Assembly (NCBI GenBank): GCA_046081125.1
Contig: JBJTVH010000040.1
Location: 109 to 64,108 of the forward strand
DNA from: Acidimicrobiales bacterium
GTDB lineage: Bacteria > Actinomycetota > Acidimicrobiia > Acidimicrobiales > Ilumatobacteraceae
Direction: 5' to 3'
DNA: 64,000 bases
The translations under genes and the position numbers were made by a program. The notes beneath the pieces were generated by a model that did not search any database, had not been told where the DNA came from, and saw only the letters and a program-made list of their open reading frames with translations. This document shows positions 16,775 through 38,158 of this stretch, in pieces. Position 1 is the stretch's first letter. Every line of letters begins with the position of its first letter.

Positions 16775-16902
16775 CCCGCAGCAGCCCGGACCCGCCCGGC
16801 CGGTGGACGCACCGGGGTGTGTCAAGATGCCGGCCGCCGTTGGTCGACGCCGCTGCGGAGGGTTCGGATGCCTGGACGGAGTGCCGTCGTGAAGGTTCCG
16901 TC

Positions 16903-17523: not shown

Positions 17524-17616
17524 GCCGGACACGTCCGCAAGGGAAGCCGCCCCTGCCCGAAGGGGCGCACGAGTAGCCGTTCCCTCCCTGTACGGGGCGT
17601 CCTACCGTCGCCGACG

Positions 17617-20291: not shown

Positions 20292-20297
20292 TCGCCC

Positions 20298-23471: not shown

Positions 23472-24046
23472 CGGGGAACGACCTCGACACGCACGGGCAC
23501 ATGGGCCGGGGTCGCTGCGCGTACCAGCCGGCTGACCCGATCGAGTTCGGCGGGAATGAGCGGCGCCGCCACCCGAACGAGGATCCCCGGCGCGCTCGTC
23601 CCCGGCGCGACGCCACCGGGCCGGGCCGAGACCGCGACCCCCCCGTTGTCGAGCACCTCGACCCGACCGCCGAGGTACGCCTCGACGAGCTCGCGCACGC
23701 CCTTGGCGGTCCCCCGCCACCGGAACAGCTCGACGCCGGAGGCAACGAGACGGCGGAGCTGCTCAGGCCGCCAGTTGTCGTCGACCGCAAGGCCCACCCA
23801 ACCGGCCACCCAGGACAGCACGTCGAGCGGCGAGAGCGCCGGATCGAGGTAGGCATCGAGGTTGTCGAGCGTCAGCCACACCGGGGCGAGCACGGCGTCG
23901 AGGGCGTCACACAGGAGCATCGCGTTGGCGTCGAGTTCCTGGTAGATCGCCGGAAGCAACGATCCGAGCCCGACCGCGCCGCGCCCGACGAAGCCGGGGA
24001 CGGGTTCGACCCCCGGCAGCGACCAGTCCTCGAACCCGGCCCTCAT
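23468..24046 (-). CDS. phage tail protein, P2 gpI-like domain (baseplate wedge, Afp12-position)
   Basis: ATG 24046 overlaps the baseplate J stop (ATGA). 192 aa. LPAIYQELDANAMLLCDALDAVLAPVWLTLDNLDAYLDP..SPLDVLSWVAGWVGL resembles the gpI N-terminal tail-protein domain. The longer ORF-track version (to 25252) overlaps baseplate J in another frame. Confidence 0.75.
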   Translation of the reverse strand: MRAGFEDWSLPGVEPVPGFVGRGAVGLGSLLPAIYQELDANAMLLCDALDAVLAPVWLTLDNLDAYLDPALSPLDVLSWVAGWVGLAVDDNWRPEQLRRLVASGVELFRWRGTAKGVRELVEAYLGGRVEVLDNGGVAVSARPGGVAPGTSAPGILVRVAAPLIPAELDRVSRLVRAATPAHVPVRVEVVPR

Positions 24047-26016
24047 GTCGACCCCTGCAACCGCACCTCGCAGCGCTCCAGGTACGGAAGCCCGTTGGCT
24101 TGCGGGACCAGGCGCGGTTGGGGCTGCGGGGCGTACTGCCCGGTGGCGAGGTCGATGGCGAACAGCAGGAGGTCCTCCACCTGGTCCACCCCCGGAAGGC
24201 GGGCCACCGCGCCGACGAGTTCCCCCGTGGTGACCGGCCGCCCGAGCGGCCATCCGGTGCCGTCGGGTCCGCCGTGGACCGGGTGCAGGTGGCGGCGCAC
24301 GGCGGCGACCACCCGCGCTTCGAGTTCGGCGGCGTTCGCGGTGGCCCACGGCCGCACGAACACGACGATCCGCACGCCTTGGTAGACGGGCGGCTCGATC
24401 ACCACGCGGGCGCCGAGGACCCGGCGCAGATCCAGTTCGGCGGCCACTCGGCCCAAGGTGTCGGCGTCGGGTTGGAGTTGCTCCGGGCTGGGCTGCTCGG
24501 GCACGTGGGGCACCACGAGCAACCGGACGACGCCCGGCTCGGCCGCCGGCGTGAGGCAGTGGGCCCGGGCCAGGTTCCGAGACGCCTGCAGCGCAAGGTA
24601 CTCGTAGTCCTCGGCCGTGACCGCCCGGTCCCGCGTGCGGAACGCGAGCGGGGCGCGTGCCTTCGCCGCGTCGACCGTCTCGCCGTCGACCCCGCCGGTC
24701 GCCGCCCGCCGGTTCTCCACGCGTGCCACCGAGGGCACGGAGGCCTTCAGCACCCGCAGGGTTCCCGGCAGGACGTTGCCGACCCGGCCGCCGCCGTGCA
24801 GGTAGCGGCGCACCCGCAACACGCTGCCGGCCGGGGGGACCGCGCCGTACTGGCGCAGCGCACCCTCGGGCTCGCGCACCGCCGGTCCGAACACGATCCG
24901 CCCTGCGGTGGCGTCGATCCGGAACACGCGATCGGTCGGACCGGCATCGACGAAGTCGTCCACCCGGCGCCACTCGTGCACCACGGCCGCCGTGGTGCCG
25001 TCGGCCTGCTCGAGGTCCTGCATGGCCTCGATCACCTCGGGTTCGCCGCCGAACACCACCGGGCGGTGCTCGAGGTCGTAGGTCTGGCCGGGTGCCCCCT
25101 CGGAGTTCCCGAGCACCTCGGCGAGCACCTCGGTGGCGTGCCGGGCGCCCGTGGTACCGCCGACGGTGAACGCCATCAGGTCGGTGATCCGGGGCGAGGC
25201 CCGGTACGGGTTGTCGCCCGGAGGGGTGGCAGCCACCACGCAGCGCACCCAACCGCCCCGCTGACCCGACACGGTCGAGGCCGCATGATCGGCGGGGAGG
25301 TGCAACACCACGTCACCGGGACGGTTGAACCCACCTGTGGTGTCCCGCTCGATCTCGCACGGCTTCCAGCCGTCGGCGGTCCATGCCTCCCAGACCCGGG
25401 GCGGCCGAAGCGGGTTGATGCCGAACCCCTCGACGCTGCCGGCGATGCGCAGGTCGAGCACACACGACGGCGCCGGATCGGACAGCCCGACGAAGCACGC
25501 GTCGCCGGGTTGCGGCGGCTCGGCGAACAGCGCCACGTCCCGACCGGTGGCCAGTGCGTTGGTGCGGTCCTCGAGTGCACCGCCGGCGGGCTGCACGGCG
25601 ATGGCGATCCGCCGGACCGGAACGATCGAGAGCTCCTCGACCGTGCGGAACACGACCGCTTCGGTCCGGTCGGTCCGCTCGGTGGCCACCTCGACGCCGG
25701 CCGGGACGGTCACCACGCGCGACTGCGGCGCGGTCAACCAGAACGTCACGTCTGTCGTCGCGGCGTGGGGCGGTCGCAGCTCGATGCCGAGCAGGTCGAG
25801 GAACTTCACGTAGAGGCGGTCGGGGACCCGGTTGAGCCGGTAGAGCAGCTGCTCCACCATGAACGCGAACGTCTCGATCAGCGTGACGCCGGGATCCGAC
25901 ACGTTGTGGTCGGTCCAGCCCGTCCACTCCGGCCAGCGGCGCTGCACCATGCGCTTGGCCTCGTCGACGAGCTGCTGGAACGTTCGGTCGTCGAGGTTCG
26001 GGGCGGGGAGGCTCAC
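24043..26016 (-). CDS. baseplate J-like protein (Afp11 / T4 gp6-like)
   Basis: 657 aa. N-terminus SLPAPNLDDRTFQQLVDEAKRMVQRRWPEWTGWTDHNVSDPGVTLIETFAFMVEQLLYRLN is typical of eCIS baseplate J proteins. Its start overlaps the gp25 stop. Confidence 0.85.
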   Translation of the reverse strand: MSLPAPNLDDRTFQQLVDEAKRMVQRRWPEWTGWTDHNVSDPGVTLIETFAFMVEQLLYRLNRVPDRLYVKFLDLLGIELRPPHAATTDVTFWLTAPQSRVVTVPAGVEVATERTDRTEAVVFRTVEELSIVPVRRIAIAVQPAGGALEDRTNALATGRDVALFAEPPQPGDACFVGLSDPAPSCVLDLRIAGSVEGFGINPLRPPRVWEAWTADGWKPCEIERDTTGGFNRPGDVVLHLPADHAASTVSGQRGGWVRCVVAATPPGDNPYRASPRITDLMAFTVGGTTGARHATEVLAEVLGNSEGAPGQTYDLEHRPVVFGGEPEVIEAMQDLEQADGTTAAVVHEWRRVDDFVDAGPTDRVFRIDATAGRIVFGPAVREPEGALRQYGAVPPAGSVLRVRRYLHGGGRVGNVLPGTLRVLKASVPSVARVENRRAATGGVDGETVDAAKARAPLAFRTRDRAVTAEDYEYLALQASRNLARAHCLTPAAEPGVVRLLVVPHVPEQPSPEQLQPDADTLGRVAAELDLRRVLGARVVIEPPVYQGVRIVVFVRPWATANAAELEARVVAAVRRHLHPVHGGPDGTGWPLGRPVTTGELVGAVARLPGVDQVEDLLLFAIDLATGQYAPQPQPRLVPQANGLPYLERCEVRLQGST

Positions 26017-26414
26017 GGCTGCTCCTGCGGGATGACGTAGAAGGGGAACACGAGGTTGCGCGGATCATTCGAGCCGCGGATCTCGTAACGGATGTCGATG
26101 TACAGGCACGAGCCGTCGGTCTCGTCGGCCCGCACGGTCACGTCGAGGACGTCGATGCGCGGTTCCCATCGCTCGAGTGCCCGAAGCACGGCGTCGCGCA
26201 GGCGTCCGGCGGTCTCCCGGTCGGCGGGAGCGAACACGTAGTCGTGGATGCCGCAACCGAACTCGGGCCGCATCGGGCGCTCGCCCGGTGCCGTCGCCAG
26301 GATCAGCCGGATGGCCTCCTCGATCTCCTGGACCCCGGTGACCAATGCGAGCGACCCGGACGGGTCGAGCCGCAACGGGAAGGCGATCCCTGCACCGATC
26401 GGACTGCGCGCCAT
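26013..26414 (-). CDS. GPW/gp25-family baseplate wedge protein (Afp9-like)
   Basis: 133 aa. GIAFPLRLDPSG...EEAIRLILATAPGERPMRPEFGCGIHDYVF is the gp25/GPW signature. Confidence 0.9.
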   Translation of the reverse strand: MARSPIGAGIAFPLRLDPSGSLALVTGVQEIEEAIRLILATAPGERPMRPEFGCGIHDYVFAPADRETAGRLRDAVLRALERWEPRIDVLDVTVRADETDGSCLYIDIRYEIRGSNDPRNLVFPFYVIPQEQP

Positions 26415-26427
26415 GGCCGTGCTCTCC

Positions 26428-28158
26428 TCAGTTGAGCTGGATCGGTTGACCGGACACCCGCACCGGGCCCGACCCGCTGACGGCGACTTGACCGCCGTCG
26501 AGATCCAGGTTCGATTGGGCCTTGACCTTCACCGATCGCCCGGACAGCTCGAGGGTGCCGGTGGCCTCGACGGTCACATCGCCCCGGGCGGAGATCTTCA
26601 CGTCGCCGTCGCTCTGCACGGTCAGGCTCTTGCCCGCTTGGTCGAGACGGATCGAGATCGCACCGTCGCCAGTTCGCAGTTCGATCCCCTCGGTGCCGCT
26701 CGCGTCGACGAAGACGAGTTGGTGGCCGGTGCGAGACGTGAACAGACGGTTGTTGACCGCGCCGTTGCCCGAGTCGAGCAGCTGGCCCGGGCCGGTCACC
26801 GCTTTGTCCTGGCCGTTGTAGAGCCCGCCGAGCACGTAGGGGTGGTTCATGTCGCCCTGCTCGAACGCGACGAGGACCTCGTCGCCGACCTCGGGCAGCA
26901 ACAGCCAGCCGCGGTCGGCACCTGCGCCGGCGTGACTGACCCGGGACCACACGCTCACGAACTGATCGGCGAGCCACGGGAAGCGCAGGCGCACCCGGCC
27001 GAGTTGGTCCGGGTCGTCGACGTCGTCCACGACGGCCGGCACGACGCCGGCGATCCGGGTCGACCCCCCATCACCCCCGCCGGTGAGCCCGAGCAGCGAG
27101 CGGGCCTCCCGGCCCGACACGGTGAACAGCGTCCGATACCCCTCGGTCGGGTCGTACCGGTGCGTGGTGGAGGTCAGCACGTACGTGCCGTCGAAGGGCG
27201 CGCCGGCGAGCGCTAGTCGCACTGCCGCACCGGCCCGCAACTTGGGATCGCCGTGCGCGATCCCGTCGATCTCGGCGAAGCTCGCCGCCACGTGCTCGGC
27301 GAGCGCCCGCGCGGCCGCGTCGGCGGCCCCTGCGTTGCGGATCGGCGGATCGACGGCGACCAGGGGCGGGCCCTTGAACAGGCCCGCGAGTTCGGCCGGC
27401 GTGTGGCCGTTGGCGATCGTGACGGTGCGGGCCGGCGCCGTCGCCGTGATCGCCCGCTTGTCGAGCGGGTCCCATCCCCGTACCTCGACCTGCTCGACCT
27501 GTTCGGCCGCGGTCACCGCGGCCCGAAGCTCGACCAGGTTGCCGCCCACCGTCAGCGTGAGCGGATCCTGGCTCGAGAGGTCGGCCTGCCCGGGTGCCCC
27601 CTGCGACGTCGACGGGGGTCGGAAATGGAGGCGGCCGTCGCTCACGAGCACCTCGTTGCCGACCTCCCGGGCCAGGCGACGAAGGAACTCCCAATCGTTC
27701 TCACTGGCCTGCGTGACATGCGGGTGGGTCGAGTTGGTCGCCACGATGTCGCCCGACCGGAGATGGTGCCGGTCGGCCACCTTCCGAGCGATGTCGGCAT
27801 AGGTGACGTTGACGTAGCTCTCCGTGATGCGGCCGTGGAACAACCGGTGGGACTCGTCGTAGCCCCGCACGACCGTGTAGCTGGTCCCGGCGTGGATCTC
27901 GGCCTCCAGCGCCGTGATCTCCCCTTCGATGAGCGGCTCGCCGGCGGGATGCGCGTCGTTGATCACCACCACCTTGAGCTTCGCCCCGATACGAGCCCCC
28001 ATGCGCTCGACGGCGTTGCGCGCCGGATCCTTGAGCGTGATCGAGAACGAATCCGGCAGGTGGAGGTGGTCCTCGACTTCCACCTCGACGATGTCGACGC
28101 CGTCGACGCGCGAACCGCCCACGCTGATCGCGAGGTTGTTGGACGGTTGCGCGGGCAC
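26428..28158 (-). CDS. VgrG / phage late control gpD-like spike-hub protein (Afp8-like)
   Basis: 576 aa. gpD-like N-domain (...SFSITLKDP...TVVRGYDESHRL...NDWEFLRRLAREVG). gp5-OB-like middle (RVRLRFPWL...SVWSRVSHAGAG). C-terminal beta-helix repeats. Confidence 0.9.
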   Translation of the reverse strand: MPAQPSNNLAISVGGSRVDGVDIVEVEVEDHLHLPDSFSITLKDPARNAVERMGARIGAKLKVVVINDAHPAGEPLIEGEITALEAEIHAGTSYTVVRGYDESHRLFHGRITESYVNVTYADIARKVADRHHLRSGDIVATNSTHPHVTQASENDWEFLRRLAREVGNEVLVSDGRLHFRPPSTSQGAPGQADLSSQDPLTLTVGGNLVELRAAVTAAEQVEQVEVRGWDPLDKRAITATAPARTVTIANGHTPAELAGLFKGPPLVAVDPPIRNAGAADAAARALAEHVAASFAEIDGIAHGDPKLRAGAAVRLALAGAPFDGTYVLTSTTHRYDPTEGYRTLFTVSGREARSLLGLTGGGDGGSTRIAGVVPAVVDDVDDPDQLGRVRLRFPWLADQFVSVWSRVSHAGAGADRGWLLLPEVGDEVLVAFEQGDMNHPYVLGGLYNGQDKAVTGPGQLLDSGNGAVNNRLFTSRTGHQLVFVDASGTEGIELRTGDGAISIRLDQAGKSLTVQSDGDVKISARGDVTVEATGTLELSGRSVKVKAQSNLDLDGGQVAVSGSGPVRVSGQPIQLN

Positions 28159-28161
28159 CGC

Positions 28162-28839
28162 TCAGCTCCCCGAGGGCACGACGAGGCGGCGGCCGGGCCG
28201 GACGCGCAACGGATCGTCGATGTCGTTGGCCCGGGCGATCTCCCGCCATCGGGTCGGGGTGCCGAGCAGTCGGGTGGCGACATGGGCGAGCCGTTCGCCA
28301 CCGTCGAGCTGATGCAGGGCCATCGCCTCGATCGCCCCCGAGGTGGGGTTCTGGCGCGGCGGAACGACGGCCAGCACCTCCTCGAGCGTGAGGGTCACCA
28401 CGGCGCGAATCGCCTGACCCGACGACGCGAACCGGGTGTACTTCACCGCAACGGTCTTCACCGTTGCGCAGTGGACGTAATCGGTGCCGCCCCAGGAGAA
28501 CTTGGCATACGGCGCGACCGGCTTGTTCTGGTCGCCCCCCTTGATCGGCATGACCGCGGCCATCAGCTTCGCCGCCACCTCGACGACCGCCGGGGCGTCC
28601 TTGCCGTCCTCGGACCGGTCGAGGAACATCTCGATGGTGATGGTGCCGCCCTTGGCGCCGTTGTACTCCGGCGGCGCCGGCGTCTTGCCGTTCTTCGGCT
28701 TCCACTCGGCCGAGCGCTGCACGGTGAACTCCTTCGGGTTGAAGGAGAACTCGAACTTTGCGATCTCGTCGCCGAGTCCCCGGCCGCCGTTGGCCGGCTT
28801 GTGCAACGTGAGGGAGGCCTTCGCCAGCTTGCCGTCCAT
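28162..28839 (-). CDS. tube-initiator-like protein with C-terminal LysM (Afp7 / P2 gpX-like)
   Basis: 225 aa. C-terminal LysM: HQLDGGERLAHVATRLLGTPTRWREIARANDIDDPLRVRPGRRLVVP. Confidence 0.85.
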   Translation of the reverse strand: MDGKLAKASLTLHKPANGGRGLGDEIAKFEFSFNPKEFTVQRSAEWKPKNGKTPAPPEYNGAKGGTITIEMFLDRSEDGKDAPAVVEVAAKLMAAVMPIKGGDQNKPVAPYAKFSWGGTDYVHCATVKTVAVKYTRFASSGQAIRAVVTLTLEEVLAVVPPRQNPTSGAIEAMALHQLDGGERLAHVATRLLGTPTRWREIARANDIDDPLRVRPGRRLVVPSGS

Positions 28840-28843
28840 CGCC

Positions 28844-29281
28844 TCAGAACCCCTTGTCCTCGTACTCGAACCCGTGGTGGGCCAACTCCAGGGTTTCGGT
28901 CGCCACCTTCGCCGACTCCGCGTTGAACGACGGGCCCGTCCAGCGCACCGGGATCACCCCGGTGAGACTCCACGAGGCCAGGTCGCGACCCTCGGCGTCC
29001 TTGGCCGTGATGCGACCGGTCTTGCGGGTGACCTTGCCCCCCATCGACGAGAACCACTTGGCGACCTTGGCGCTCGAACGGTCGAGCGGTCGGGTGAGCT
29101 TGATGTTCGTGTACTTCACGCGCACCGGGAGCTGGTGGACGAAGGTGTTGTTGCCACCCTCCTCGCGCTGCTCGACCACGACCTCGGCCCCGAGGCCGTC
29201 GCACTGGGTGAACGCGCCGAGTTCAACGCCGTCGATCTCGACGCTGAAGTAGAGCTGGATTCCCGGATCGCCGTCGGCCAT
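28844..29281 (-). CDS. phage tail tube protein (T4 gp19-like; Afp5-like paralogue)
   Basis: 145 aa. F.VEIDGV..G.F..C.GL..E.....EGG.N.....LP.R.KY.NI.L.R... is the pattern of eCIS tube proteins. Confidence 0.9.
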   Translation of the reverse strand: MADGDPGIQLYFSVEIDGVELGAFTQCDGLGAEVVVEQREEGGNNTFVHQLPVRVKYTNIKLTRPLDRSSAKVAKWFSSMGGKVTRKTGRITAKDAEGRDLASWSLTGVIPVRWTGPSFNAESAKVATETLELAHHGFEYEDKGF

Positions 29282-29291
29282 CGATCTCCCC

Positions 29292-31514
29292 CTACCGCCG
29301 GGTCCGCGTCAGCGAGCCGGCCCGCTCCCGGTCATGGCGCAGTTCCTGCTTGAGCAGCAGCCGCATGCGCCCGTAGAGGCGCTTGGCCAATTCGTCGAGT
29401 TCCGCTCCCGACGCAGCGGCGGCCCCGCTGCTCGCCCCGGATCCTCCGGCCGTCGCCGCGCCCCCGCCCGGTCCCCCGTCGGCCTCCCGCTGGACCGGTT
29501 CGTCGTCGGCCGGGGCGTCGAACACGACAGAGCCATCGGCGTGACGTTGCGCCACTCCCGAGGCCACGGCGACGGCACCGGCATCGACCCACGACCCGGA
29601 ATCGGGCGCCGCAGGCGTCGACCCGCCTCGCCAGTCGAGCGAGGCTGCGTTTGCGCGTGCGACCGGCGCGCCGGACAGGACGGCACGCTGCACGGACGGT
29701 CGGTCCGGCGTCGAGGTCGGCGACGCACCTCCAAGCGAACTGGACATGGCGCCCGAGGACGCCGCCGCGGGTGCCACGCCATCGGCAGCCGGCACGGGCC
29801 GCACGCTCGATGCCACCGGCCGATCACCGAGCAGCGCCGCCGTCAGCGGACTATCGCTCGCCATGCGCTGCAACGGCCCTGCTGGCTCGATCGCGTCGAG
29901 CACGGCATCGGCGCTCGACGCCGCCGGGTTCGCCTCCGGCATTGCGTGGCGCTGGACGGGCAGCGGGGCTGCGACCGGGCTCGTCCCCTCGGTGGGCCCG
30001 TCGAATATTGCGCCGGAGAGTGGCGAGCCCGCCCCTGCGGGCGCCTGCGGCCGACGGTCACCGAGCAGCGGGGCGACGGTCGCCGATTCGGCGGTCGTGC
30101 CCGGCTCGCCGGACACGATTGTCGGCCCGGACACGATTGTCGGCCCGGACTCGACCGACGTCCCCGGTACCTCCACTGCGCCGGCAAGATCCGCAACGCC
30201 TCGGGCGGTCGGTGTCCCAGGTGCCGGTAGCCCAGGTGCCGGGGGTACCGATGGCAACGGTGCGCCGAGACCGACCCGACGCGTCGGAACAACCGCCGCC
30301 CCCTCGGTACGTCGCTGCACCACCGGCCCGGCACCGCTTAGGTCGGGCCCCGCCGTCGACGAACCACCAGACCCCGACCGGACCGGCAACGACCCAGCAC
30401 CGAGCACCGGTGCAACCGAGGTCGCGTCCGAACCCGACGCAGGCCCCGCAGCACCGGCGCCGATCAGCGAGCCCGGGATCGGCGCCGGGTCCTGCGCCGG
30501 ACCCGACGATCCCCCGCTGCCCGACGATCCGTCGGCGGCACGACTCACGACCGGTCCGCCCAGGCCGGGGCGACGTGCCGCCGAAGCAGGCGACTCGACC
30601 GGACCCACGCGAGGCGGGGCGCCGGCATCACCCGACCCGTGCTCAGGCGCATCACCTGATGCGCGACCGGCCCCGACGAGCGGCGCCACCGCCGCGGGGT
30701 CATCACCGGCCCCGACGAGCGACGCCGGTTCGCCTGATCCGTCGCCCAGCGGATCGACCGGTAGCTCGACGGGGAGCAAGGCCGATGGCACGGCCGAGCC
30801 GTCGGCTGCCGCTTCGGTCACGGCGCGGCGCTGTACCGACGGCGTCGGGCCCTCCGAGGCCCGAGCCGGAGCCGGCTCGGCCGGCGGCGACACCACGGAC
30901 CCCGTCGGCAGCGCCAGGTCGTCACGGGAGTCGAGACGATCAGCCCAAGCGGACGCCGGCCCTTGCAGCCCAAGGGACGCTGCGTCGGGCACCGTGGCGG
31001 GTTCTGCTGACACCGGCGACGGCTCGGCCGGCGTCGGTTCGCGCACGGCCGTCACCGGCACGGAACGACTCGGCATGGCGACGACCGGCGCAGGACGACG
31101 AGGGCCGTCCAGCGCAACCACGCGCTGGACGGGCGGTCCCGCCGACGGCCCAGGTGCAGCGCTCTGACCCACGTTTCGCCCCTGCGCGACGCGTGCCTCG
31201 GCATCGCGATGCGCCCGGGCGAGCACGAGACCGGCCGGGGCGTCGCTCGACACGGCGTGATCGAGTTGGCGCAACACCAGCGGCGACTGCCACGAGGCCA
31301 AGGACCGGTCGAATCGCCGGTGGACCACCGGCTCGATCGGTGACACCACCGCCGGCATGGCCGGCAGGGTCGTCCAGTCGGCACGCACGGCGCCGCCGAG
31401 CGGCGAGCCCTCGTGCGTGCCGGCGGGCGACCGATCCTGGTCCGGCTGCTCGGCGGCCGGCGAGGCGCCGTCCGCGGCGCCGGTTCGCGCCCGCAACCAG
31501 TCGAACAGGCCCAT
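29292..31514 (-). CDS. Pro/Ala/Gly/Ser-rich low-complexity protein in the tape-measure position
   Basis: 740 aa; ATG 31514. Eight [V/L/A]QR motifs and six L[LVI]G[AD][GR] motifs are spread through a low-complexity body. The charged helical C-terminus is ELDELAKRLYGRMRLLLKQELRHDRERAGSLTRTRR. It lies between the chaperone-like genes and tube2/LysM/VgrG. Confidence 0.7.
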   Translation of the reverse strand: MGLFDWLRARTGAADGASPAAEQPDQDRSPAGTHEGSPLGGAVRADWTTLPAMPAVVSPIEPVVHRRFDRSLASWQSPLVLRQLDHAVSSDAPAGLVLARAHRDAEARVAQGRNVGQSAAPGPSAGPPVQRVVALDGPRRPAPVVAMPSRSVPVTAVREPTPAEPSPVSAEPATVPDAASLGLQGPASAWADRLDSRDDLALPTGSVVSPPAEPAPARASEGPTPSVQRRAVTEAAADGSAVPSALLPVELPVDPLGDGSGEPASLVGAGDDPAAVAPLVGAGRASGDAPEHGSGDAGAPPRVGPVESPASAARRPGLGGPVVSRAADGSSGSGGSSGPAQDPAPIPGSLIGAGAAGPASGSDATSVAPVLGAGSLPVRSGSGGSSTAGPDLSGAGPVVQRRTEGAAVVPTRRVGLGAPLPSVPPAPGLPAPGTPTARGVADLAGAVEVPGTSVESGPTIVSGPTIVSGEPGTTAESATVAPLLGDRRPQAPAGAGSPLSGAIFDGPTEGTSPVAAPLPVQRHAMPEANPAASSADAVLDAIEPAGPLQRMASDSPLTAALLGDRPVASSVRPVPAADGVAPAAASSGAMSSSLGGASPTSTPDRPSVQRAVLSGAPVARANAASLDWRGGSTPAAPDSGSWVDAGAVAVASGVAQRHADGSVVFDAPADDEPVQREADGGPGGGAATAGGSGASSGAAAASGAELDELAKRLYGRMRLLLKQELRHDRERAGSLTRTRR

Positions 31515-31517
31515 GGC

Positions 31518-31664
31518 TCAACGACCTTGGGCGAGTCGCTCCGCCTCGGCCACGAACCGGCGCCGCAGCGGGTGTTCGAGGTCGAGGATGTCGTCGAGCG
31601 GCCAGTGGTAGTGGAAGGCGAGGAACGCCGCTTCCCGGTAGAGCCGGTCCGAGGCGTTCCTCAC
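31518..31664 (-). CDS. small conserved-looking CIS ORF (48 codons), absent from the ORF track
   Basis: GTG 31664 overlaps the upstream stop (GTGA). It translates VRNASDRLYREAAFLAFHYHWPLDDILDLEHPLRRRFVAEAERLAQGR. TGA at 31520..31518 lies 3 nt before the ATG of the next gene. The composition is protein-like and not Arg/Pro noise. It resembles short proteins I recall from actinobacterial CIS loci (possibly DUF6760, unverified). Confidence 0.55.
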   Translation of the reverse strand: MRNASDRLYREAAFLAFHYHWPLDDILDLEHPLRRRFVAEAERLAQGR

Positions 31665-32122
31665 GGTTCCCCCAGGCGACCACCGGCCAGGTCGACCGTC
31701 AACTCGTGCTTGCAGGCGGGGCAGACCACCCGGGCCCGCGTGTGGCCCTCGGTGTTGATGCGGCGGTAAAGGTCCTGCAGGAAGGCCAGATCGGTGGCGA
31801 AGAGCCCTTCGATCGTCCCGGCGTGGACGTCGGTGATGGTCCCGAGCCGTTCGATGACCCGGGCGAGCAACACGACGGTCAGATAGGCGGGATTCTCGCG
31901 GACCCGGTCGTCGAGCAGGGGCACCAACTCGTCGCGGGCGGTGGCCAGACGCATCACCCCGTCCCGGTGGAGGCGCCCGCCGCTGTCCACGTACCCGCGC
32001 GGCAGCACGAACGTGAACTCCGTACGCAGCTCGTAAGGCTCCTCGCGCGGCGCCGGTGCCGTCGGCGAACCCTCCTCGGGCCCGTCGGCACCACCGGACG
32101 CAGACGCGAAGGACCGCCGCAT
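31661..32122 (-). CDS. tail-assembly-chaperone-like protein with C-terminal CxxC (Afp6-position)
   Basis: ATG 32122 shares one nucleotide with the tube1 stop (TGATG). 153 aa: ...YELRTEFTFVLPRGYVD..G.LHRDGVMRLATARDEL...NPAYLTVVLLARVIERLG...VVCPACKHELTVDL. It occupies the P2 gpE position. Confidence 0.65.
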   Translation of the reverse strand: MRRSFASASGGADGPEEGSPTAPAPREEPYELRTEFTFVLPRGYVDSGGRLHRDGVMRLATARDELVPLLDDRVRENPAYLTVVLLARVIERLGTITDVHAGTIEGLFATDLAFLQDLYRRINTEGHTRARVVCPACKHELTVDLAGGRLGEP

Positions 32123-32565
32123 CACTCGGGCTGCAGGGCTTCGTACGTGATCACGAGCTTCTCGGTGACCACGCTGGTGTCGCCAGCCTTCAGCGTGCCG
32201 AGCTCGAGGCTCTTGGGCCATGCAGCCGTCAGCTTGTACCGCTTGATCGCCACGCCCTCGTAGTCGTACACGATGATCGATCCGCCCTTGCGGGCGTCGT
32301 TCATCTTCCCGAAGTGGGCGGCCTTGATCCACTTCTCGAAGCTGCTGTCCGACGTGAGGGCCCGGGTGAGCGTGACCTCGCCGGCCTTGGGTCGGCCGGG
32401 GAGCTTCTTGTTGATGAACTTGCCGTCGGGCGAGTTGGCCTTCATCTCGATCGTGTCCTGCTCGATCTTGAGGCCGCTCACCTCCTGGATGTGCTTGATC
32501 ACGATGCCGTCGATCTCCAGACCGAAGGAGTGGCCGACGGCGCCGTCGAGATCAGGGAGCGCCAT
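32122..32565 (-). CDS. phage tail tube protein (T4 gp19-like; Afp1-like)
   Basis: 147 aa. GHSFGLEIDGIVIKHIQEVSGLKIEQDTIEMK...GEVTLTRALT.D..F.KWI matches the eCIS inner-tube family. Confidence 0.9.
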   Translation of the reverse strand: MALPDLDGAVGHSFGLEIDGIVIKHIQEVSGLKIEQDTIEMKANSPDGKFINKKLPGRPKAGEVTLTRALTSDSSFEKWIKAAHFGKMNDARKGGSIIVYDYEGVAIKRYKLTAAWPKSLELGTLKAGDTSVVTEKLVITYEALQPE

Positions 32566-32604: not shown

Positions 32605-34128
32605 TCACTCGGCGAGCGCGGCGCCGCCGGAGAACTGGGACAGGCGGAAGATCACGAACTCCGCCGGCTTGACCGGCGCCACGCCGATCTCGCAGATGAG
32701 CTGGCCGAGGTCGACCGACTCCGGCGGGTTCGTCTCCCGGTCGCACTTCACGAAGAAGGCCTCGTCGGGCGTGAGGCCGAACAACGCGCCCTTGCGCCAC
32801 TCATTGGTGAGGAACGCCGAGATGGTGCGCCGCACCCGGGCCCACAGCGCATCGTCGTTCGGCTCGAACACCACCCACTGGGTGCCGTTGAGGATCGACT
32901 CCTCGAGGTAGTTGAACAAGCGCCGCACGTTCAGGTAGCGCCACTCGGGATCGCTCGACAGCGTGCGCGCACCCCACACCCGGATCCCCCGACCGGGGAA
33001 CGACCGGATGCAGTTCACCCCGATCGGGTTCAACAGTTCCTGCTCGCGCGACGTGAGGCTGCAGGCGAGGTCGACCACACCGCGCACCACCTCGTTGGCC
33101 GGCGCCTTGTGCACCCCCCGGGTGTCGTCGTTGCGACCCCAGATCCCGGCCACGTGGCCCGACGGCGGCACGAAGACGTTGGCGTTCACGGCCGGGTCGT
33201 ACACCTTGATCCAGGGCCAGTAGAGCGCGGCGTACTTCGAGTCGTACCCGGCGACGTCGGTGCGCCAGTTGGCGACCTTCTGCGGGTTTAGATCGGGCGG
33301 CGGGTCGAGGACCGCCACCCGGTCGCCCATCAGCTCGCAGTGGGCGATCATCGCCAACTGCACGGCCTTGACCCCTTCGAGCGTGAGCAGACCCTTCTGG
33401 TAGGCCGCCATCACGTCGGGGACGCACACCATCGTGATCTCGTCGATCGCCTCGAGGCCACCGAAGCCGGTGCGGTCCGCCGCGTCGCCGATGTAGTCCG
33501 ACGGATCGAGCTTGGCCGGGGTGGCCGAGGCCGCACCCCCGGCAAGGGCGACGGTGCCGTTGGCCGGCCGGATGGCGGGTGCACCGGCCACCTCCGCGAG
33601 TTCGATCAGCTGGCTCGCGCTCTTCAGCACGGTGACCGCGCTCTGCTTGCCCCGACCGCTGGTGAGGTTGTCGTGCTCCTCCACGACGCGGCCGTCGCGC
33701 TTGACCACGAGCTTGAAGGCCTCCTCGCCCCCCTCGCTCGCATCGGTGACCTCGACGCTCAGGCCGTCGCCGGTGGGACCGGCCTCCAGCGCCCGCACCG
33801 AGTAGCGGGCCTTGCTCCCGTCGCCGAGCGCACCGAGGATCCCCTGAGCATTCGGGGCGGCACCACCCGCTCCGACCCGGACCACGAAGCAGTTGCCGCC
33901 ACCGTTGAGGAAGTAGCCGTAGACGGCGTGGGCCAGGTAGCCGTCACCGGTGAAGTCGCCGAAGGTGTCGACGAACTGCTTCCAGTTCGACACCAGGGTG
34001 GGGGTGTTGGCCGGGCCCCGGGCGGCAAGGCCGACGAAGGCCGCCACCGCCGTGCCGACGCCCTCGATGGGCGCCGAGCCGGACGGCTTTTCCTCCACGT
34101 ACACACCGGGCGAGAGATAGGTAGGCAT
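32605..34128 (-). CDS. contractile tail sheath protein (Afp2/3-like)
   Basis: 507 aa. Hallmark N-terminus MPTYLSPGVYVEE. Conserved C-terminal sheath domain (...VNCIRSFPGRGIRVWGARTLS.DPEWRYLNVRRL...). Confidence 0.95.
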   Translation of the reverse strand: MPTYLSPGVYVEEKPSGSAPIEGVGTAVAAFVGLAARGPANTPTLVSNWKQFVDTFGDFTGDGYLAHAVYGYFLNGGGNCFVVRVGAGGAAPNAQGILGALGDGSKARYSVRALEAGPTGDGLSVEVTDASEGGEEAFKLVVKRDGRVVEEHDNLTSGRGKQSAVTVLKSASQLIELAEVAGAPAIRPANGTVALAGGAASATPAKLDPSDYIGDAADRTGFGGLEAIDEITMVCVPDVMAAYQKGLLTLEGVKAVQLAMIAHCELMGDRVAVLDPPPDLNPQKVANWRTDVAGYDSKYAALYWPWIKVYDPAVNANVFVPPSGHVAGIWGRNDDTRGVHKAPANEVVRGVVDLACSLTSREQELLNPIGVNCIRSFPGRGIRVWGARTLSSDPEWRYLNVRRLFNYLEESILNGTQWVVFEPNDDALWARVRRTISAFLTNEWRKGALFGLTPDEAFFVKCDRETNPPESVDLGQLICEIGVAPVKPAEFVIFRLSQFSGGAALAE

Positions 34129-34252
34129 GAACCCCCCACGAGGACACGAGACTCCGGGCAGGCTCGCGGCCCATCGGGTTCACGACAACGGTTCGGGGGA
34201 CGGGCACAGGGGAAGGCACCGGTGCCCGTTCGGGCAACCGGTCCGTGCGACG

Positions 34253-36601
34253 TCAGGTCTTGACGGTGGTGGCCACGACGATCTTGCTGATGTCGACCGG
34301 GTTCTTCAGCACGATGTCCGGCGTGATGAAGATCGACTTGCAGCTGATCCCGACCGCGGAGTCCCGGGCCACCTCGGTGACCACCGTCGTAGTCGGCCCG
34401 CCACCGGTCGAGCCGGACGTGGTCGGCGTGGGCGTCTGGGAGGTCACGGTGTCGGTGTCCTTGCACCACGACGAGACGGTCGCCTTCAGGTTGACCGCCG
34501 TGAGCGCGGCCTTGGCCTGCGCGATCGTTTTCCCGACCAGGTTCGGTACCGGCACCGGAGGACCGCTGGAGACGGTCACCTCAATCGCCGAGCCCTCCGA
34601 CTGGGATGTCCCCGCACCGGGCGACACCGATACGACGCGCCCTGCTGCGACCGTCTTGCTCGGTTCCTTCTTCGTCGTCACGGACAAACCGACCGCTTGG
34701 ATGGCCGCCGTGGCCTCGGCCTCGGTCTTGTTCGCCACGGCCGGCACGGCCACCTTCTTCGTGCCGATCCCGACCACCAACTGCAGCGTGGTGCCGAGAG
34801 GAGCCCTGGTGGACTTGGCCGGGAGGCCGGTGGCGACGACGTCGACGACCTTGCCGAGCTTGGCGTTGTCCCCGGTCACGTCGACGGTCTTGGTGCTCGA
34901 CAACACGGCGAACCCTGCCGCTTTCAGGTCCGCCGTCGCTGCGTCGGGCGCGGCGCCGATGACCGATGGGATGTCCTTGAGCGGCGGGCCGGACGACAAC
35001 ACCAGCGTCACCGCCTTGTTCTTCTCGAAGTCGGTCCCGGCAGCCGGGATCGTCTGCGCCACCGAGTTGGCGGCGAACTCGGTGCTCTGCACCTTCGACG
35101 GCGCGACCTCGACCTTCTGGAACCCCTGCTGGGTGAGGAAGGCCGACGCCTCCTCGGGCTTCATGCCCAGCAGATAGGGCATCGGCAGCTTGCCGGGCGC
35201 CACCGACATGACCAGCTTCACCGTCGCGCCCTTGGCCACGGACTGTCCGGCCGCCGGCGATACCTCGACCACCCGGTCGGGCACGGCGGCCTCCACGGTG
35301 CGAACGTCCTTCTCGGCCACGAGACCCTTGCTGGCCAGAGTCGCCTGCGCATTCGCGAAATCGAGGCCCTCGAGGGCGGGGACCACGACGGCGACCGTCC
35401 CCGCACCGAGGAACACCTTCACCGTCGAGTCCGGCTTCACCTTCTCCGCTGCGGCCGGCTCCTGGCGCACCACCCGCCCCTCGGGTTGATCCGGGACGCG
35501 GTCGGCAGCGGCCTCGACCCGGAGCTTCAGCGCGGTCAGCTGTCCCTGGGCCTGGTCGAGGGTGAGCCCGCTGAGATTCGGCACGGCGACGGGCTCGCTG
35601 GCATCGCTCTTGCTCAGCTGGCGCAGCAGCAGTGGGACACCGAGCGCAAGCAGGATGGCCAGCACGGCGGCGGCGACCGGCAGCAGCCACTTGGGCAGCC
35701 GGGCGATCTGGGTGTACGTGCCCTGGGTGTGCGCCTGGGGCTTGCCGTCGACCTCGACGGAGAACGTGTGACGCTTCGGCTGGCCGATCCAGAGACGTCG
35801 TCGCGGTAACGCCTGCAGCGGCACGGTCAGGTCGGCGCCGGGCGCGAGCTCGACCGTCGGCGGGAGACCGAAGCGCACCTGCTCGGATCGATCCGTGGCC
35901 GAGATCGCCACGTTCCTGGCGACGTTGCCGCGGTTGGCGAGGAGCAGACGATGCTCACCGAGCTTCTTGCCCTCGGACTCCGGCGGGGTCAGCTGGGCGA
36001 CGAGATCGTCGAAACGCCCGACCTCGAGTGCACCGGACTGCGTGGCGCGCACCGAGGCGTCGAGGCTGGAGGACGCAACCACGTTGAACGTCCGTCGTCC
36101 CGGAGCCGTCGAGGGCAACCGAGGCGGTGCGACGCGGACGTGGACCTCGGCGTCGTCGTCGACGTAGAGGTTGAGCGCCGGCGGCTCGATCGTCACCCAG
36201 TCCGCCGGCAGATCCGGCACGGTGACCGACACGTTGTCGACGATCGTGCCGGTGTTGCGCACCCGGAGCGTGGCCAGCACCACCGAACCCGGCTGCACCA
36301 CGAGCTCGCTCGGGGTGAGCACGGTGGTGATCCCGCCGCGGTCCCGAGGCACCGTCGGCGTCGGGCCGGTGACGGGCGGAGGCGGCGGGGGCGGCACGAC
36401 GCTCGTGGGCCGAGTGATCGGTGGCGGCGGCGGGATCGACGGCCCGCCGAGCGGGGGCATGGCCGGCAGGGGAGCCGTCGGCGGAACCTGTGGGTTGACC
36501 GCGGTGGGCGCCGACGACCAATCGAGGTAGGCGTTGCACGACGGGTTGCGGCAGAACACCATGCCCGGCTCGTTGGCCTGACCGCACCGTTCGCAGTTCA
36601 T
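34253..36601 (-). CDS. bitopic membrane protein: N-terminal zinc ribbon, Pro-rich linker, beta-sandwich-like cytoplasmic domains, TM, about six extracellular PASTA repeats
   Basis: ATG 36601 is preceded by GAGGAG. MNCERCGQANEPGMVFCRNPSCNAYL is a zinc ribbon. TM segment WLLPVAAAVLAILLALGVPLLL. The ectodomain has repeats of the PASTA pattern (VPNLSGLTLDQAQGQLTALKL..., VPALEGLDFANAQATLASKGL..., VPNLVGKTIAQAKAALTAVNL...). The ORF-track extension to 37339 is antisense to the prsW-like gene. Confidence 0.8.
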   Translation of the reverse strand: MNCERCGQANEPGMVFCRNPSCNAYLDWSSAPTAVNPQVPPTAPLPAMPPLGGPSIPPPPPITRPTSVVPPPPPPPVTGPTPTVPRDRGGITTVLTPSELVVQPGSVVLATLRVRNTGTIVDNVSVTVPDLPADWVTIEPPALNLYVDDDAEVHVRVAPPRLPSTAPGRRTFNVVASSSLDASVRATQSGALEVGRFDDLVAQLTPPESEGKKLGEHRLLLANRGNVARNVAISATDRSEQVRFGLPPTVELAPGADLTVPLQALPRRRLWIGQPKRHTFSVEVDGKPQAHTQGTYTQIARLPKWLLPVAAAVLAILLALGVPLLLRQLSKSDASEPVAVPNLSGLTLDQAQGQLTALKLRVEAAADRVPDQPEGRVVRQEPAAAEKVKPDSTVKVFLGAGTVAVVVPALEGLDFANAQATLASKGLVAEKDVRTVEAAVPDRVVEVSPAAGQSVAKGATVKLVMSVAPGKLPMPYLLGMKPEEASAFLTQQGFQKVEVAPSKVQSTEFAANSVAQTIPAAGTDFEKNKAVTLVLSSGPPLKDIPSVIGAAPDAATADLKAAGFAVLSSTKTVDVTGDNAKLGKVVDVVATGLPAKSTRAPLGTTLQLVVGIGTKKVAVPAVANKTEAEATAAIQAVGLSVTTKKEPSKTVAAGRVVSVSPGAGTSQSEGSAIEVTVSSGPPVPVPNLVGKTIAQAKAALTAVNLKATVSSWCKDTDTVTSQTPTPTTSGSTGGGPTTTVVTEVARDSAVGISCKSIFITPDIVLKNPVDISKIVVATTVKT

Positions 36602-36665
36602 CGTCGCTCCTCGACCGCTTCTGGTTCGGCATCGTAGAGAGTGCCACGACCCTACGATCAGCGCG

Positions 36666-37823
36666 GTGAGCACCCCGTTGCCGCCCCCGGTGCCGAGCGG
36701 AACACCTGCCGGGTGGTACCCCGACCCGTGGCACCAAGCGGCATGGCGGTGGTGGGACGGTCGATCGTGGACCCCCCACGTCGGCGGTGGACCGGGGCCG
36801 GGTGGTCCTGCAACCCCCCGGCGACCCCGGCTGCCGGCGTGGCTGAGCCCGCCGGTGCTCGTCGCCGCCGTCCTCGCCATCCCCCTGCAGGTGCTCGCCC
36901 TGATCCTGGCGCCCGTGGCGACGCTGCTCGCCGTCGTGCCGTTGGCCGTCGTGTTGCCGACCCTCACCTGGCTCGACCGGGTCGAACCCGAGCCACGTGG
37001 AGCGCGGATCCACGCGTTGCTGTGGGGCGCGACCGTCGCCGTCGTGATCTCGGCGATCGTCAACAGCCTCGTCGCAGTCGGGGCCGGCGAGGACGTGGCG
37101 GCCGTCGCCTCGGCGCCGCTGGTGGAGGAGTTCACCAAAGGTCTCGGGGTCTGGTGGGCGGTCCGCCGGCGCGAGCTCGACGGCGTCGTCGATGGCCTCG
37201 TGTACGCCGGCTGGGTAGCCGCAGGATTCGCGGCGGCCGAGAACGTGCAGTACTTCGTGATGGCCGCCGGGGACGGCTCGCTCGTCGCCACGTTCGTCCT
37301 GCGCGGCATCGCGACCCCCTTCGCCCATCCGTTGTTCACGGCATGGATCGGGGTGGCGATCGGGCTGGCCGTCTCGCGTGGGCGGCCCCGGCTGGCCGCC
37401 GCCGTCCCCGGCTACCTCGCCGCCGTTGCGCTGCATGCGGCCTGGAACGGCTCACTGGTCGCGTCGAGCAACGGAGCCGGGCTGCTGCTGTTCGCCATCG
37501 CCGTGTTCGTTGCGATCTTCGTGACGACGGTGCTGATGGTGATCTGGCTGCGCCAGCGGGAGCGGCGGCGGATCCTGGCCACGATCCCGGCCCTCGCCGG
37601 CCGGTATGGGATCCCGGTCGAGCAGCACGCCGTCCTCGCCGACTGGTCGACACGCCATCGCGTGCGCCGACAGCTCGCCAGGGCCGACCGACGCCGGTTC
37701 GACGACCTCTACGCCACGCTCGCCCGGCTGGTGATGCTGCAGGACCGACCAGGCGGCATCGACCCGGTGACCGAGGCTCGGCTCCTCGAACGTCTCCGCT
37801 CCGGAGGACCCAAGCCGGGCTGA
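36666..37823 (+). CDS. PrsW-family intramembrane metalloprotease with N-terminal DUF2510-like segment
   Basis: GTG 36666. GWYPDPW...RWWDGRSWT N-segment. Multi-pass membrane protein with PrsW motifs PLVEEFTKGLG, FAHPLFT, ALHAAWNG. Confidence 0.85.
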   Translation: MSTPLPPPVPSGTPAGWYPDPWHQAAWRWWDGRSWTPHVGGGPGPGGPATPRRPRLPAWLSPPVLVAAVLAIPLQVLALILAPVATLLAVVPLAVVLPTLTWLDRVEPEPRGARIHALLWGATVAVVISAIVNSLVAVGAGEDVAAVASAPLVEEFTKGLGVWWAVRRRELDGVVDGLVYAGWVAAGFAAAENVQYFVMAAGDGSLVATFVLRGIATPFAHPLFTAWIGVAIGLAVSRGRPRLAAAVPGYLAAVALHAAWNGSLVASSNGAGLLLFAIAVFVAIFVTTVLMVIWLRQRERRRILATIPALAGRYGIPVEQHAVLADWSTRHRVRRQLARADRRRFDDLYATLARLVMLQDRPGGIDPVTEARLLERLRSGGPKPG

Positions 37824-38040: not shown

Positions 38041-38059
38041 GGTGGAGACGAAGGGACTC
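38041..38059 (+). repeat. att repeat, distal copy (GGTGGAGACGAAGGGACTC)
   Basis: Matches 43773..43791 (GGTGGAGACGATGGGACTC) at 18 of 19 positions. That copy is the acceptor/T-arm 3' part of tRNA-Ala. Confidence 0.75.
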
Positions 38060-38131: not shown

Positions 38132-38158
38132 AGGGCTTAGTCGCCGGTCGATCTCGAC

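Follow-up and report, generated by a model that had tools for sequence, protein, structure and literature searches.

The window analysed here is a stretch of 64,000 nucleotides from an Acidimicrobiales bacterium, and a 782-aa protein encoded in it is part of a contractile injection system (CIS) locus. On the evidence of sequence comparison and predicted fold, its β-sandwich pair and transmembrane (TM) helix are the conserved module of the Sco4256–4258 family of class IId CIS-associated membrane proteins. The protein is probably a member of this family with a PASTA ectodomain and an N-in/C-out orientation, acting as an envelope-anchored partner that sets the place or time at which the cytoplasmic CIS attacks the membrane of its own cell. 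The gene and the parts of its product are as follows.

34253..36601, minus strand: gene of the bitopic protein, 782 aa (translation; Pfam PASTA, E = 5e-55; BLASTP, E = 8e-28 to a Streptomyces CIS RICIN protein)
36518..36601, minus strand: N-terminal zinc ribbon, aa 1–28 (signature C-x2-CG...FC...C-x2-YLDW, read from the sequence)
36341..36517, minus strand: Pro-rich linker, aa 29–87, presumably disordered (sequence composition)
35702..36340, minus strand: tandem ASH/PapD-like β-sandwich domains, aa 88–300 (phmmer, AF2, Foldseek, Pfam)
35621..35689, minus strand: single TM helix, aa 305–327 (hydropathy scan; helix 219–247 of the AF2 model)
34466..35590, minus strand: PASTA array, extracytoplasmic, aa 338–712 (five Pfam repeats and a sixth, degenerate one)
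34256..34465, minus strand: C-terminal tail, aa 713–782 (Thr/Ser/Gly-rich, two Cys)

The open reading frame starts with an ATG at 36601 and ends with a stop codon at 34253–34255 on the minus strand. The cysteines of the zinc ribbon (CERCG...CRNPSC) lie within aa 3–23, and the AF2 model, with a pLDDT of 94.7, shows two β-sandwiches. Pfam recognizes five stretches of the ectodomain as PASTA (E = 5e-55), a local HMM adds a sixth, degenerate repeat, and the tail (aa 713–782) gave no family match. The initial annotation had described a bitopic protein of this length with a zinc ribbon, a Pro-rich linker, β-sandwiches, a TM helix and about six PASTA repeats; Pfam, hydropathy and AF2 agree with this description, the number of repeats being five or six. 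Domain types alone suggest that the ribbon, linker and β-sandwiches are cytoplasmic and that the PASTA array is in the wall compartment.

A word-indexed search with the 782-aa protein was swamped by words from the Pro-rich linker. With BLASTP, aa 91–326, which include the TM helix, match aa 3–237 of a 471-aa RICIN-domain protein (30% identity, E = 8e-28), such that the TM helices of the two proteins are aligned. The gene for this protein is located between the sheath and AAA genes in the plasmid CIS cluster of Streptomyces sp. NBC_01426. Matches with tblastn also include Streptomyces proteins annotated as ‘hydrolytic protein’ or ‘hydrolase’, and pSCATT. Foldseek matches of the AF2 model are to 7sqc, 7ptb, 4kkr, the chaperone-usher chaperones CsuC/YadV and a transglutaminase, and these templates coincide with the HHpred list published for domain 1 of Sco4256. 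Family membership is based on a Streptomyces proxy that fits the published description, and not on the sequence of Sco4256 itself.

The family was described in 2023 as ‘putative effectors’ having one TM helix, a common N-terminus and variable C-termini, and the Sco4256–4258 triple mutant phenocopies deletion of the CIS (PMC10066040). Sco4256 is present in purified particles, and its homologues are rare outside eCIS regions (PMC10020575). An exhaustive phmmer search found the β-sandwich module in 3961 cluster representatives, again with variable C-termini, and PASTA, ricin lectin and β-propellers are swapped as C-terminal modules within the family. Among the 101 closest relatives, PASTA is found in 19, Zn_Ribbon_1 in 17 and Cep192_D3 in 82, the last being a weak Pfam match in the protein itself. 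The variant with a PASTA ectodomain was seen mainly in Acidimicrobiales.

The protein resembles Sco4256, Sco4257 and Sco4258 of Streptomyces coelicolor in having a tandem PapD/ASH-like domain of about 215 aa, which is N-terminal in those proteins, followed by one TM helix and a variable C-terminus, and in that the genes belong to class IId CIS clusters, where they typically lie 5′ of the sheath operon. It differs in ending with five or six PASTA repeats rather than a ricin-type or haemolytic lectin, in its additional N-terminal zinc ribbon and Pro-rich linker of about 60 aa, in the position of the gene, which immediately precedes a co-oriented sheath gene, and in its host, an Acidimicrobiales bacterium rather than an actinomycete that forms filaments and spores. 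Roughly one third of the Sco4256–4258 family end in a domain of lectin or toxin type, which is absent here, with PASTA in its place. Given that the published family allows variable C-termini, this makes the protein a variant and does not exclude membership. The suggestion that it is an undescribed kind of membrane adaptor for a CIS is not supported: the cytoplasmic module and TM helix belong to a published family (PMC10066040, PMC10020575). Our literature search found no paper that pairs ‘PASTA domain’ with ‘contractile injection’.

The surrounding CIS locus contains the following features.

32605..34128, minus strand: CIS sheath gene (Pfam Phage_sheath_1 and Phage_sheath_1C)
16361..32565, both strands: remaining CIS cluster (Pfam scans). 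Plus strand: DUF4280, LuxR/GerE regulator, Pvc16_N cap, AAA+ ATPase. Minus strand: 1057-aa protein, P2_I, Baseplate_J, gp25, VgrG, CIS_tube-LysM, then gp19 tube, 740-aa low-complexity protein, 154-aa protein, gp19 tube
34129..34252, minus strand: spacer between the PASTA and sheath genes, the control region of the sheath operon (alignment of six loci)
34223..34236, no strand: palindrome TGCCC-N4-GGGCA, with the sheath ATG about 105 nt further downstream

Coordinates and Pfam bear out the reported location of the PASTA gene 5′ of the sheath gene, on the same strand and separated from it by a spacer of 124 nt. The sheath is 99% identical to that of an Acidimicrobiales MAG. The initial annotation had asked whether genes of this architecture sit next to CIS loci elsewhere, and they do: CIS genes were found within 10 kb in all 10 protein-centred homologue contexts, five of which are independent zinc-ribbon/PASTA versions, indicating a real CIS accessory gene. 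Of the 54 sheath-centred loci whose upstream flank is 8 kb or longer, 32 have a homologue of the N-terminal module upstream of the sheath gene, and all 33 homologues at sheath-centred loci are on its 5′ side. Two further PASTA-type loci, L013 and L014, are CIS loci, and L014 has the same layout as the window, in that a PASTA-type gene immediately precedes a co-oriented sheath gene.

The palindrome in the spacer occurs as a single exact copy in the window. It is found upstream of the sheath gene at a fixed distance, exactly in 39 of 79 loci and with at most one mismatch in 70 of 79, and on this pattern of conservation is a probable regulator binding site of the sheath operon. With a conserved control palindrome of its own in the spacer, the sheath operon need not be co-transcribed with the PASTA gene. 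The palindrome was not found upstream of PASTA-type genes, which leaves co-regulation of these genes with the CIS unsupported.

Such CIS do require a membrane protein, as the initial annotation had stated: in S. coelicolor, firing depends on the bitopic CisA (SCO4242; PMC12237407). Like that of CisA, the gene of the 782-aa protein is in the CIS cluster, and the protein would resemble CisA in a bitopic architecture with a long cytoplasmic N-terminus and an extracytoplasmic C-terminal domain of a ligand-binding type. The role of sensor and adaptor proposed for CisA fits the idea put forward in the initial annotation. Of the predicted bitopic architecture, one TM helix and the Pro-rich linker are seen directly, while the orientation is read from domain types only. 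The zinc-ribbon signature is present in 40 of 150 family representatives, and the same signature, followed by a long disordered linker, is found in CisA-position proteins of two Streptomycetaceae plasmids. The similarity is short (about 40 aa, E ~1e-5), and zinc ribbons of this type are common. It suggests that the ribbon and disordered linker may form a docking handle shared with CisA-position proteins.

Beyond the ribbon, the two proteins differ. CisA lacks the tandem β-sandwich module, and the extracytoplasmic C-terminal domain of the CisA family, of about 150–160 aa, has no homologue in the window. A tblastn search of the window with a CisA-position protein (L094, 9019–10656) matched the zinc ribbon only, leaving its C-terminal domain unmatched. 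The gene studied here is upstream of the sheath gene and not downstream of the baseplate wedge genes, where the post-baseplate slot is occupied by the unrelated 1057-aa protein. Membrane attachment is also required in the thylakoid-anchored CIS (tCIS) of Anabaena, which likewise works inside the producing cell. There the anchor is an extension of baseplate components, whereas here it would be a separate bitopic protein with an ectodomain of a wall-binding type.

The window also contains a canonical pknB, as reported, with a kinase and four PASTA domains at 4539–6689, and the PASTA array studied here is about 32% identical to the ectodomain of this PknB. PASTA Ser/Thr kinases of the PknB/Stk1/PrkC type have the same order of one TM helix and then a PASTA array, in the same orientation. 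The NCBIfam model PknB_PASTA_kin aligns with the TM helix and PASTA array only and stays below its cut-off of 450 bits, at 234.6. Relatives carry the JGI name ‘beta-lactam-binding protein with PASTA domain’. These similarities would fit a PASTA protein that senses the cell wall in general, resembling a PBP or a PknB without its kinase, and that lies beside the CIS cluster by chance. This is most improbable, given that Pfam finds no Pkinase match in the protein and no Transpeptidase match either, such that it is not a PASTA-bearing penicillin-binding protein. In place of a kinase it carries a cytoplasmic zinc ribbon and ASH/PapD-like domains, its gene is in a CIS cluster, its non-PASTA part is a CIS-linked family module, and all five independent PASTA-type contexts, as well as L013 and L014, are CIS loci. 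A chance neighbour of the CIS cluster is refuted by these neighbourhood data.

On the other side of the gene is a protease gene.

36666..37823, plus strand: PrsW-family protease gene, divergent, with N-terminal DUF2510 (Pfam PrsW-protease, E = 1.4e-42)
36631..36658, no strand: inverted repeat ATCGTAG-N14-CTACGAT, in the gap between the PrsW and PASTA genes

The divergent PrsW gene, 64 bp away, and the 7-bp inverted repeat are both present as first described. Gene callers place the PrsW start later in related contigs (322–324 aa), and the DUF2510 match favours the long form. An envelope-stress signalling protein resembling an anti-sigma factor, whose cleavage by PrsW frees the cytoplasmic part to control the CIS, would account for the shared gap with its repeat and for the retention of the adjacency in a 95%-identical relative. 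The repeat arms are unchanged in this relative while the spacer and flanks vary, which is not significant, and by a rough estimate such a repeat has a chance of about 0.07 in a gap of this size. PrsW adjacency is limited to the window's own species and the 95%-identical relative (L001/L012, L097–L100); around all other family members examined, with or without PASTA, a span of 10 kb contained no PrsW. Moreover, PrsW is located where the CIS cluster gives way to housekeeping genes, no sigma factor gene is near the PASTA/PrsW pair, and the protease scores 48.6 bits in NCBIfam, far under the cut-off of 225 for true PrsW. We therefore consider this signalling role very unlikely. The processing by PrsW first envisaged is at odds with the absence of PrsW from every other PASTA-type locus examined, and the protease, which the comparison of loci does not support as a partner, appears to be a neighbour outside the mechanism.

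The published reading of Sco4256–4258 as CIS cargo or effectors has to be taken more seriously. The N-terminal module would load the protein into or onto the tube, firing would push it into the membrane, and the TM helix and wall-binding PASTA array would damage the envelope and kill the cell. Sco4256–4258 are toxic when expressed in E. coli, and in the triple mutant the tube lumens are mostly empty and CIS-dependent death is lost (PMC10066040); empty lumens together with toxicity fit cargo better than a fixed membrane receptor. The detection of Sco4256 in purified particles (PMC10020575) is in line with this, as is the combination of an invariant N-terminal loading domain with exchangeable C-terminal modules, a design typical of CIS and T6SS effectors. 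However, toxicity in E. coli does not discriminate, since CisA is toxic there as well and yet is treated as an adaptor (PMC12237407). Furthermore, PASTA, ricin lectin and β-propellers are binding modules without catalytic toxin signatures, and the export of about 450 aa of PASTA, normally co-translational and Sec-dependent, is ill-suited to storage in a 4-nm lumen. In the S. lividans particle, a close relative, the packaged cargo identified by a 2026 study is another protein, which resembles a tape measure. On balance we regard an effector role as possible but rather unlikely.

We favour an envelope-anchored partner. The conserved cytoplasmic module would engage the CIS particle, given that relatives of the protein co-purify with particles (PMC10020575) and are needed for CIS-dependent cell death (PMC10066040). 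The lineage-specific ectodomain, which consists of PASTA repeats in this protein and of a ricin-type lectin in its Streptomyces relative, would grip or report peptidoglycan or lipid II. With the module on the CIS and the ectodomain on the wall, the protein would most likely be an envelope-anchored partner that determines the place or time of CIS action. The initial reading as a wall-sensing anchor or trigger is a plausible hypothesis, and the PASTA ectodomain hints that the family may read or grip the cell wall rather than act as a classical toxin. A wider proposal, which is speculative and more doubtful than not, is that the Sco4256 family are modular envelope receptors for cytoplasmic CIS and not toxins, which in Acidimicrobiales would combine a CisA-like zinc ribbon for docking, a Sco4256-type module that binds the particle and a PknB-like PASTA sensor, such that damage to peptidoglycan or lipid II licenses docking and firing.

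It is an open question in the field by what means cytoplasmic CIS without fibres reach the membrane and which signal makes them fire, and the role of Sco4256–4258, as cargo or otherwise, is unsettled. PASTA is the best understood bacterial module for sensing muropeptides or lipid II. Its recurrence as an outer domain gives the Sco4256 family a concrete ligand class, and speaks for outer domains that bind wall or carbohydrate rather than act as toxins. The requirement for CisA was shown only in 2025 (PMC12237407), and the zinc-ribbon signature common to the protein and CisA-position proteins is a candidate docking motif. The PASTA variant extends such CIS systems to the Acidimicrobiales, an abundant and mostly uncultured group that is not known for filamentous development, and weakens the tie to multicellular development of the Streptomyces type. 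If the receptor reading is true, wall damage, for example by β-lactams, lysozyme or phage lysis-from-without, would trigger regulated cell death in an actinobacterial lineage that does not form filaments.

The PASTA gene lies 5′ of the CIS sheath gene. Its product has an N-terminal zinc ribbon (C-x2-C...C-x4-C), then some 60 proline-rich residues and a module consisting of two tandem ASH/PapD-like β-sandwiches (aa 88–300) and the only hydrophobic helix in the protein (the TM helix, aa 305–327). In Pfam, PASTA is recognised in five stretches (E = 5e-55), and Cep192_D3 matches below threshold at aa 99–160. The NCBIfam alignment for PknB-type kinases covers the TM and PASTA part only, and its score of 234.6 bits falls short of the 450-bit cut-off. 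The descriptive elements of the initial annotation (gene, domains, TM helix, spacer, divergent PrsW-family gene, inverted repeat and pknB) were all confirmed. The main features, in a window of approximately 70% GC, are as follows.

Features of the CIS cluster (genes assigned with Pfam) and its flank
~16361 to 34128, both strands, CIS cluster
Plus-strand genes of the cluster: DUF4280 (PAAR-like), LuxR/GerE regulator, Pvc16_N cap, AAA+/WHD ATPase
Minus-strand genes, baseplate side: 1057-aa protein, P2_I, Baseplate_J, gp25, VgrG, CIS_tube-LysM
Minus-strand genes, sheath side: gp19 tube, 740-aa low-complexity protein, 154-aa protein, gp19 tube, sheath
16903–17523, plus strand, LuxR/GerE regulator
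17554–17567, one-mismatch copy of the palindrome, between the LuxR gene and Pvc16_N
24043–26016, minus strand, Baseplate_J
32605–34128, minus strand, sheath gene, 124 nt 3′ of the PASTA gene
34223–34236, palindrome TGCCC-N4-GGGCA, proposed operator, TGCCCGTTCGGGCA, sole exact copy within the window
34253–36601, minus strand, PASTA gene, 782 aa by translation
36631–36658, 7-bp inverted repeat (ATCGTAG arms) in the gap between the PrsW and PASTA genes
36666–37823, plus strand, PrsW-family gene (Pfam, with N-terminal DUF2510), divergent, 64 bp from the PASTA gene

The PASTA protein is the sole canonical single-pass membrane protein of the cluster. The sheath shares 99% identity with its counterpart in an Acidimicrobiales MAG, which places the host in this order. 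At its left end the window carries the canonical pknB with pstP, rodA and pbpA, and at its right end gyrA.

The family to which the module belongs was revealed by an exhaustive phmmer search with aa 88–335, which matched 3961 cluster representatives at E ≤ 1e-3. A word-indexed protein search gave 2 hits with aa 1–331, where the proline-rich linker dominated the candidates, 14 with aa 88–335, and 4 with a 17-sequence profile. The two β-sandwiches and the TM helix are common to the family, while the C-termini vary: among the 101 closest relatives, Cep192_D3 was found in 82, PASTA in 19, Zn_Ribbon_1 in 17 and DZR in 12. The AlphaFold2 model of the module (pLDDT 94.7) contains two β-sandwiches and one helix. 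Compared with the PDB, it most closely resembles ASH-domain ciliary proteins (7sqc), the CEP192 SPD-2 domain (7ptb), RbmA (4kkr), chaperone-usher chaperones and transglutaminase C-terminal domains. These coincide with the fold templates listed by Vladimirov et al. (PMC10020575) for domain 1 (aa 2–216, followed by a TM helix at aa 219–250) of Sco4256, one of the CIS-associated single-TM proteins Sco4256–4258 of Streptomyces coelicolor.

A tblastn search of plasmids with the module matched 25 records, mostly Streptomyces megaplasmids, annotated as 'RICIN domain-containing protein', 'hydrolase' or 'hydrolytic protein', the term 'hydrolytic' being the label carried by Sco4256; the pSCATT entry in PLSDB carries no annotation. 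The match in Streptomyces sp. NBC_01426 is a 471-aa RICIN protein located between sheath/DUF4157 and AAA/DUF4255/LuxR genes, the same gene layout as in CIS-Sc. BLASTP aligns aa 91–326 of the PASTA protein with aa 3–237 of this protein at 30% identity (E = 8e-28), TM helix included. We conclude from these comparisons that the PASTA protein belongs to the Sco4256–4258 family, with the Streptomyces RICIN protein as a proxy for comparison. Fusions of the module to Ser/Thr protein kinase and FHA domains also occur, on Deinococcus plasmids (H24, H25) and in 1 of the 101 representatives (alignment A2), which hints at a signalling use of the ASH/PapD-like module.

The initial annotation proposed testing whether orthologues co-occur with CIS loci, and co-occurrence was borne out from both the protein and the sheath side. 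CIS core genes were present within 10 kb in 10/10 homologue contexts reached from the protein side, the contexts of P0001 and P0002 being uninformative short contigs. They include non-PASTA members (Nocardioides albidus and a soil metagenome), zinc-ribbon/PASTA members (representatives P0004, P0005, P0009, P0014 and P0169, of which P0009 has two paralogues flanking a GerE gene) and plasmid members (Streptomyces, Kitasatospora and S. clavuligerus). Genomes, one per species, were scanned with a sheath alignment, the N-module alignment being too divergent for a degenerate-pattern scan. This gave 80 loci from Actinomycetota, Chloroflexota, Dormibacterota and others. A homologue of the N-module lies within 10 kb in 32 of the 54 sheath-centred loci that have at least 8 kb of upstream flank, and all 33 of 33 homologues are positioned 5′ of the sheath gene. 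PASTA-type members occur in three loci (L012, L013 and L014), all from Acidimicrobiales, with zinc ribbon and PASTA domains confirmed by Pfam; L014 has the layout of the window, with the PASTA-type gene directly 5′ of the sheath gene on the same strand. Orthologues in CIS-free genomes were not observed in the contexts examined.

Two other loci have more elaborate arrangements. In L009 (590–5746), two Zn/ASH/PASTA paralogues (544 and 863 aa) flank a GerE regulator, directly 5′ of Pvc16_N, AAA, eCIS_core and sheath genes, echoing the three paralogues Sco4256–4258. In L010 (11810–19484), a Zn/PASTA-type locus, genes for NADase_transloc/DUF7577, a dynamin-like GTPase, two unknown proteins and HSP70 lie between the family member and the sheath, and may constitute a CIS-attached module with an effector or defence-like role.

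Just 3′ of the PASTA stop codon, in the 124-nt spacer (34129–34252), is a hairpin-like sequence. The predicted fold of the spacer is no more stable than that of shuffled sequence (z = −0.16), and neither a sigma-70-like promoter nor a U-tract terminator turned up in a consensus scan of it. A terminator between the PASTA and sheath genes was dropped as an explanation, the 'hairpin' being a conserved DNA palindrome, TGCCC-N4-GGGCA, which is invariant in an alignment of sheath-upstream regions from six loci. Within 260 nt 5′ of the sheath ATG it is present exactly in 39/79 sheath-centred loci and with at most one mismatch in 70/79, mostly at a distance of 104–121 nt, compared with 43 exact copies elsewhere in 1.29 Mb. 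Its fixed distance from sheath genes spans Actinomycetota, Chloroflexota and Dormibacterota (loci L012–L091). At up to one mismatch the palindrome is upstream of only 13 of 41 family genes, the PASTA-type genes being without it. Its probable role is as operator for the LuxR/GerE regulator of the cluster, and no mention of it was found in the CIS papers examined. Since it is conserved 5′ of the sheath gene, the sheath operon would have its own control region, with read-through from the PASTA gene possible and not required.

The need of intracellularly firing CIS for a membrane protein was supported by CisA (SCO4242), a bitopic protein required for CIS contraction in situ (PMC12237407). A tblastn search with the protein at the CisA position of a Streptomyces plasmid found no homologue of the CisA C-terminal domain in the window, and membership of the PASTA protein in the CisA family was rejected on this basis. 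Within the window the search matched the PASTA protein alone, at its zinc ribbon (40% identity across 41 aa, E = 4e-5). The ribbon signature C-x2-CG...FC...CG-x-[FY]L-x-W, with a long disordered linker, is present in the Streptomyces plasmid protein and its Kitasatospora counterpart, and the same signature heads 40 of 150 module-family representatives. The PASTA protein may thus combine a CisA-like N-terminal handle with a Sco4256-type module, although for so short a motif this is a lead and not proof.

The proteins at the CisA position in two plasmid-borne Streptomycetaceae CIS clusters (L094 9019–10656, minus strand, and L095 7958–9946, plus strand) are built alike. Each has an N-terminal zinc ribbon, whose signature is also that of the PASTA protein, then a very long disordered linker (in Kitasatospora acidic and proline-rich), a second zinc ribbon immediately before the TM helix, and a homologous C-terminal domain of ~160 aa. 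In the window, the post-baseplate slot, which is the place of CisA in Streptomyces, holds the 1057-aa protein (20298–23471, minus strand). It has no Pfam match and may be an effector. A Gly/Ala-rich hydrophobic stretch at aa 391–435 could form a helical hairpin, and the N-terminal motif 'VQRLAGNQA' resembles DUF4157/eCIS_core proteins.

PrsW-mediated processing had also been proposed. This was not borne out: a PrsW homologue is the adjacent gene in the window, in contigs of the same species (L001 and L012) and in a 95% relative, but in no other locus examined, and coupling to PrsW was rejected on these neighbourhood data. The gene is at the edge of the CIS cluster next to housekeeping genes, and is treated as a neighbour and not a system component. 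Conservation of the ATCGTAG inverted repeat against the 95% relative was not significant. The PrsW start is called late in related contigs (322–324 aa); the 385-aa reading frame from the GTG at 36666 holds a good DUF2510 motif (GWYPDP...WWDG..WT), and this GTG is probably the true start. Past PrsW, a lower-GC genomic island (~37900–43772) adjoins tRNA-Ala (43772–43848) and contains a tyrosine integrase (42360–43730, minus strand), GntR, a DUF433/DUF5615 (PIN-like) pair and an excisionase-like HTH protein. The 95%-identical relative (L097) lacks this island; its genes run SDR, PrsW, PASTA gene, sheath, and SDR abuts PrsW.

The Sco4256–4258 family and its association with CIS were published in 2023, as putative effectors (PMC10066040, PMC10020575). 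The main argument for such a cargo role is the empty tube lumen in the Streptomyces triple mutant, but for the PASTA protein we regard this reading as rather unlikely. The exchangeable outer domains of the family are binding modules, and the large PASTA ectodomain implies stable insertion in the membrane; both argue against cargo and favor an envelope-anchored partner. In such a partner, with a presumed N-in/C-out orientation, the cytoplasmic module would bind the CIS particle and the PASTA array would bind peptidoglycan or lipid II. Taken as a whole, we lean towards the suggestion that the PASTA protein is an envelope-anchored partner through which CIS action is coupled to the wall and membrane of the producing cell itself.

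The idea that a PASTA-bearing CIS adaptor was undescribed holds in part: the family and its CIS link were already known, but the literature yielded no description of the PASTA ectodomain variant, the zinc-ribbon extension or the occurrence in Acidimicrobiales. No publication pairing 'PASTA domain' with 'contractile injection' was found, and the word 'PASTA' is absent from Vladimirov et al. (PMC10020575) and its supplements.
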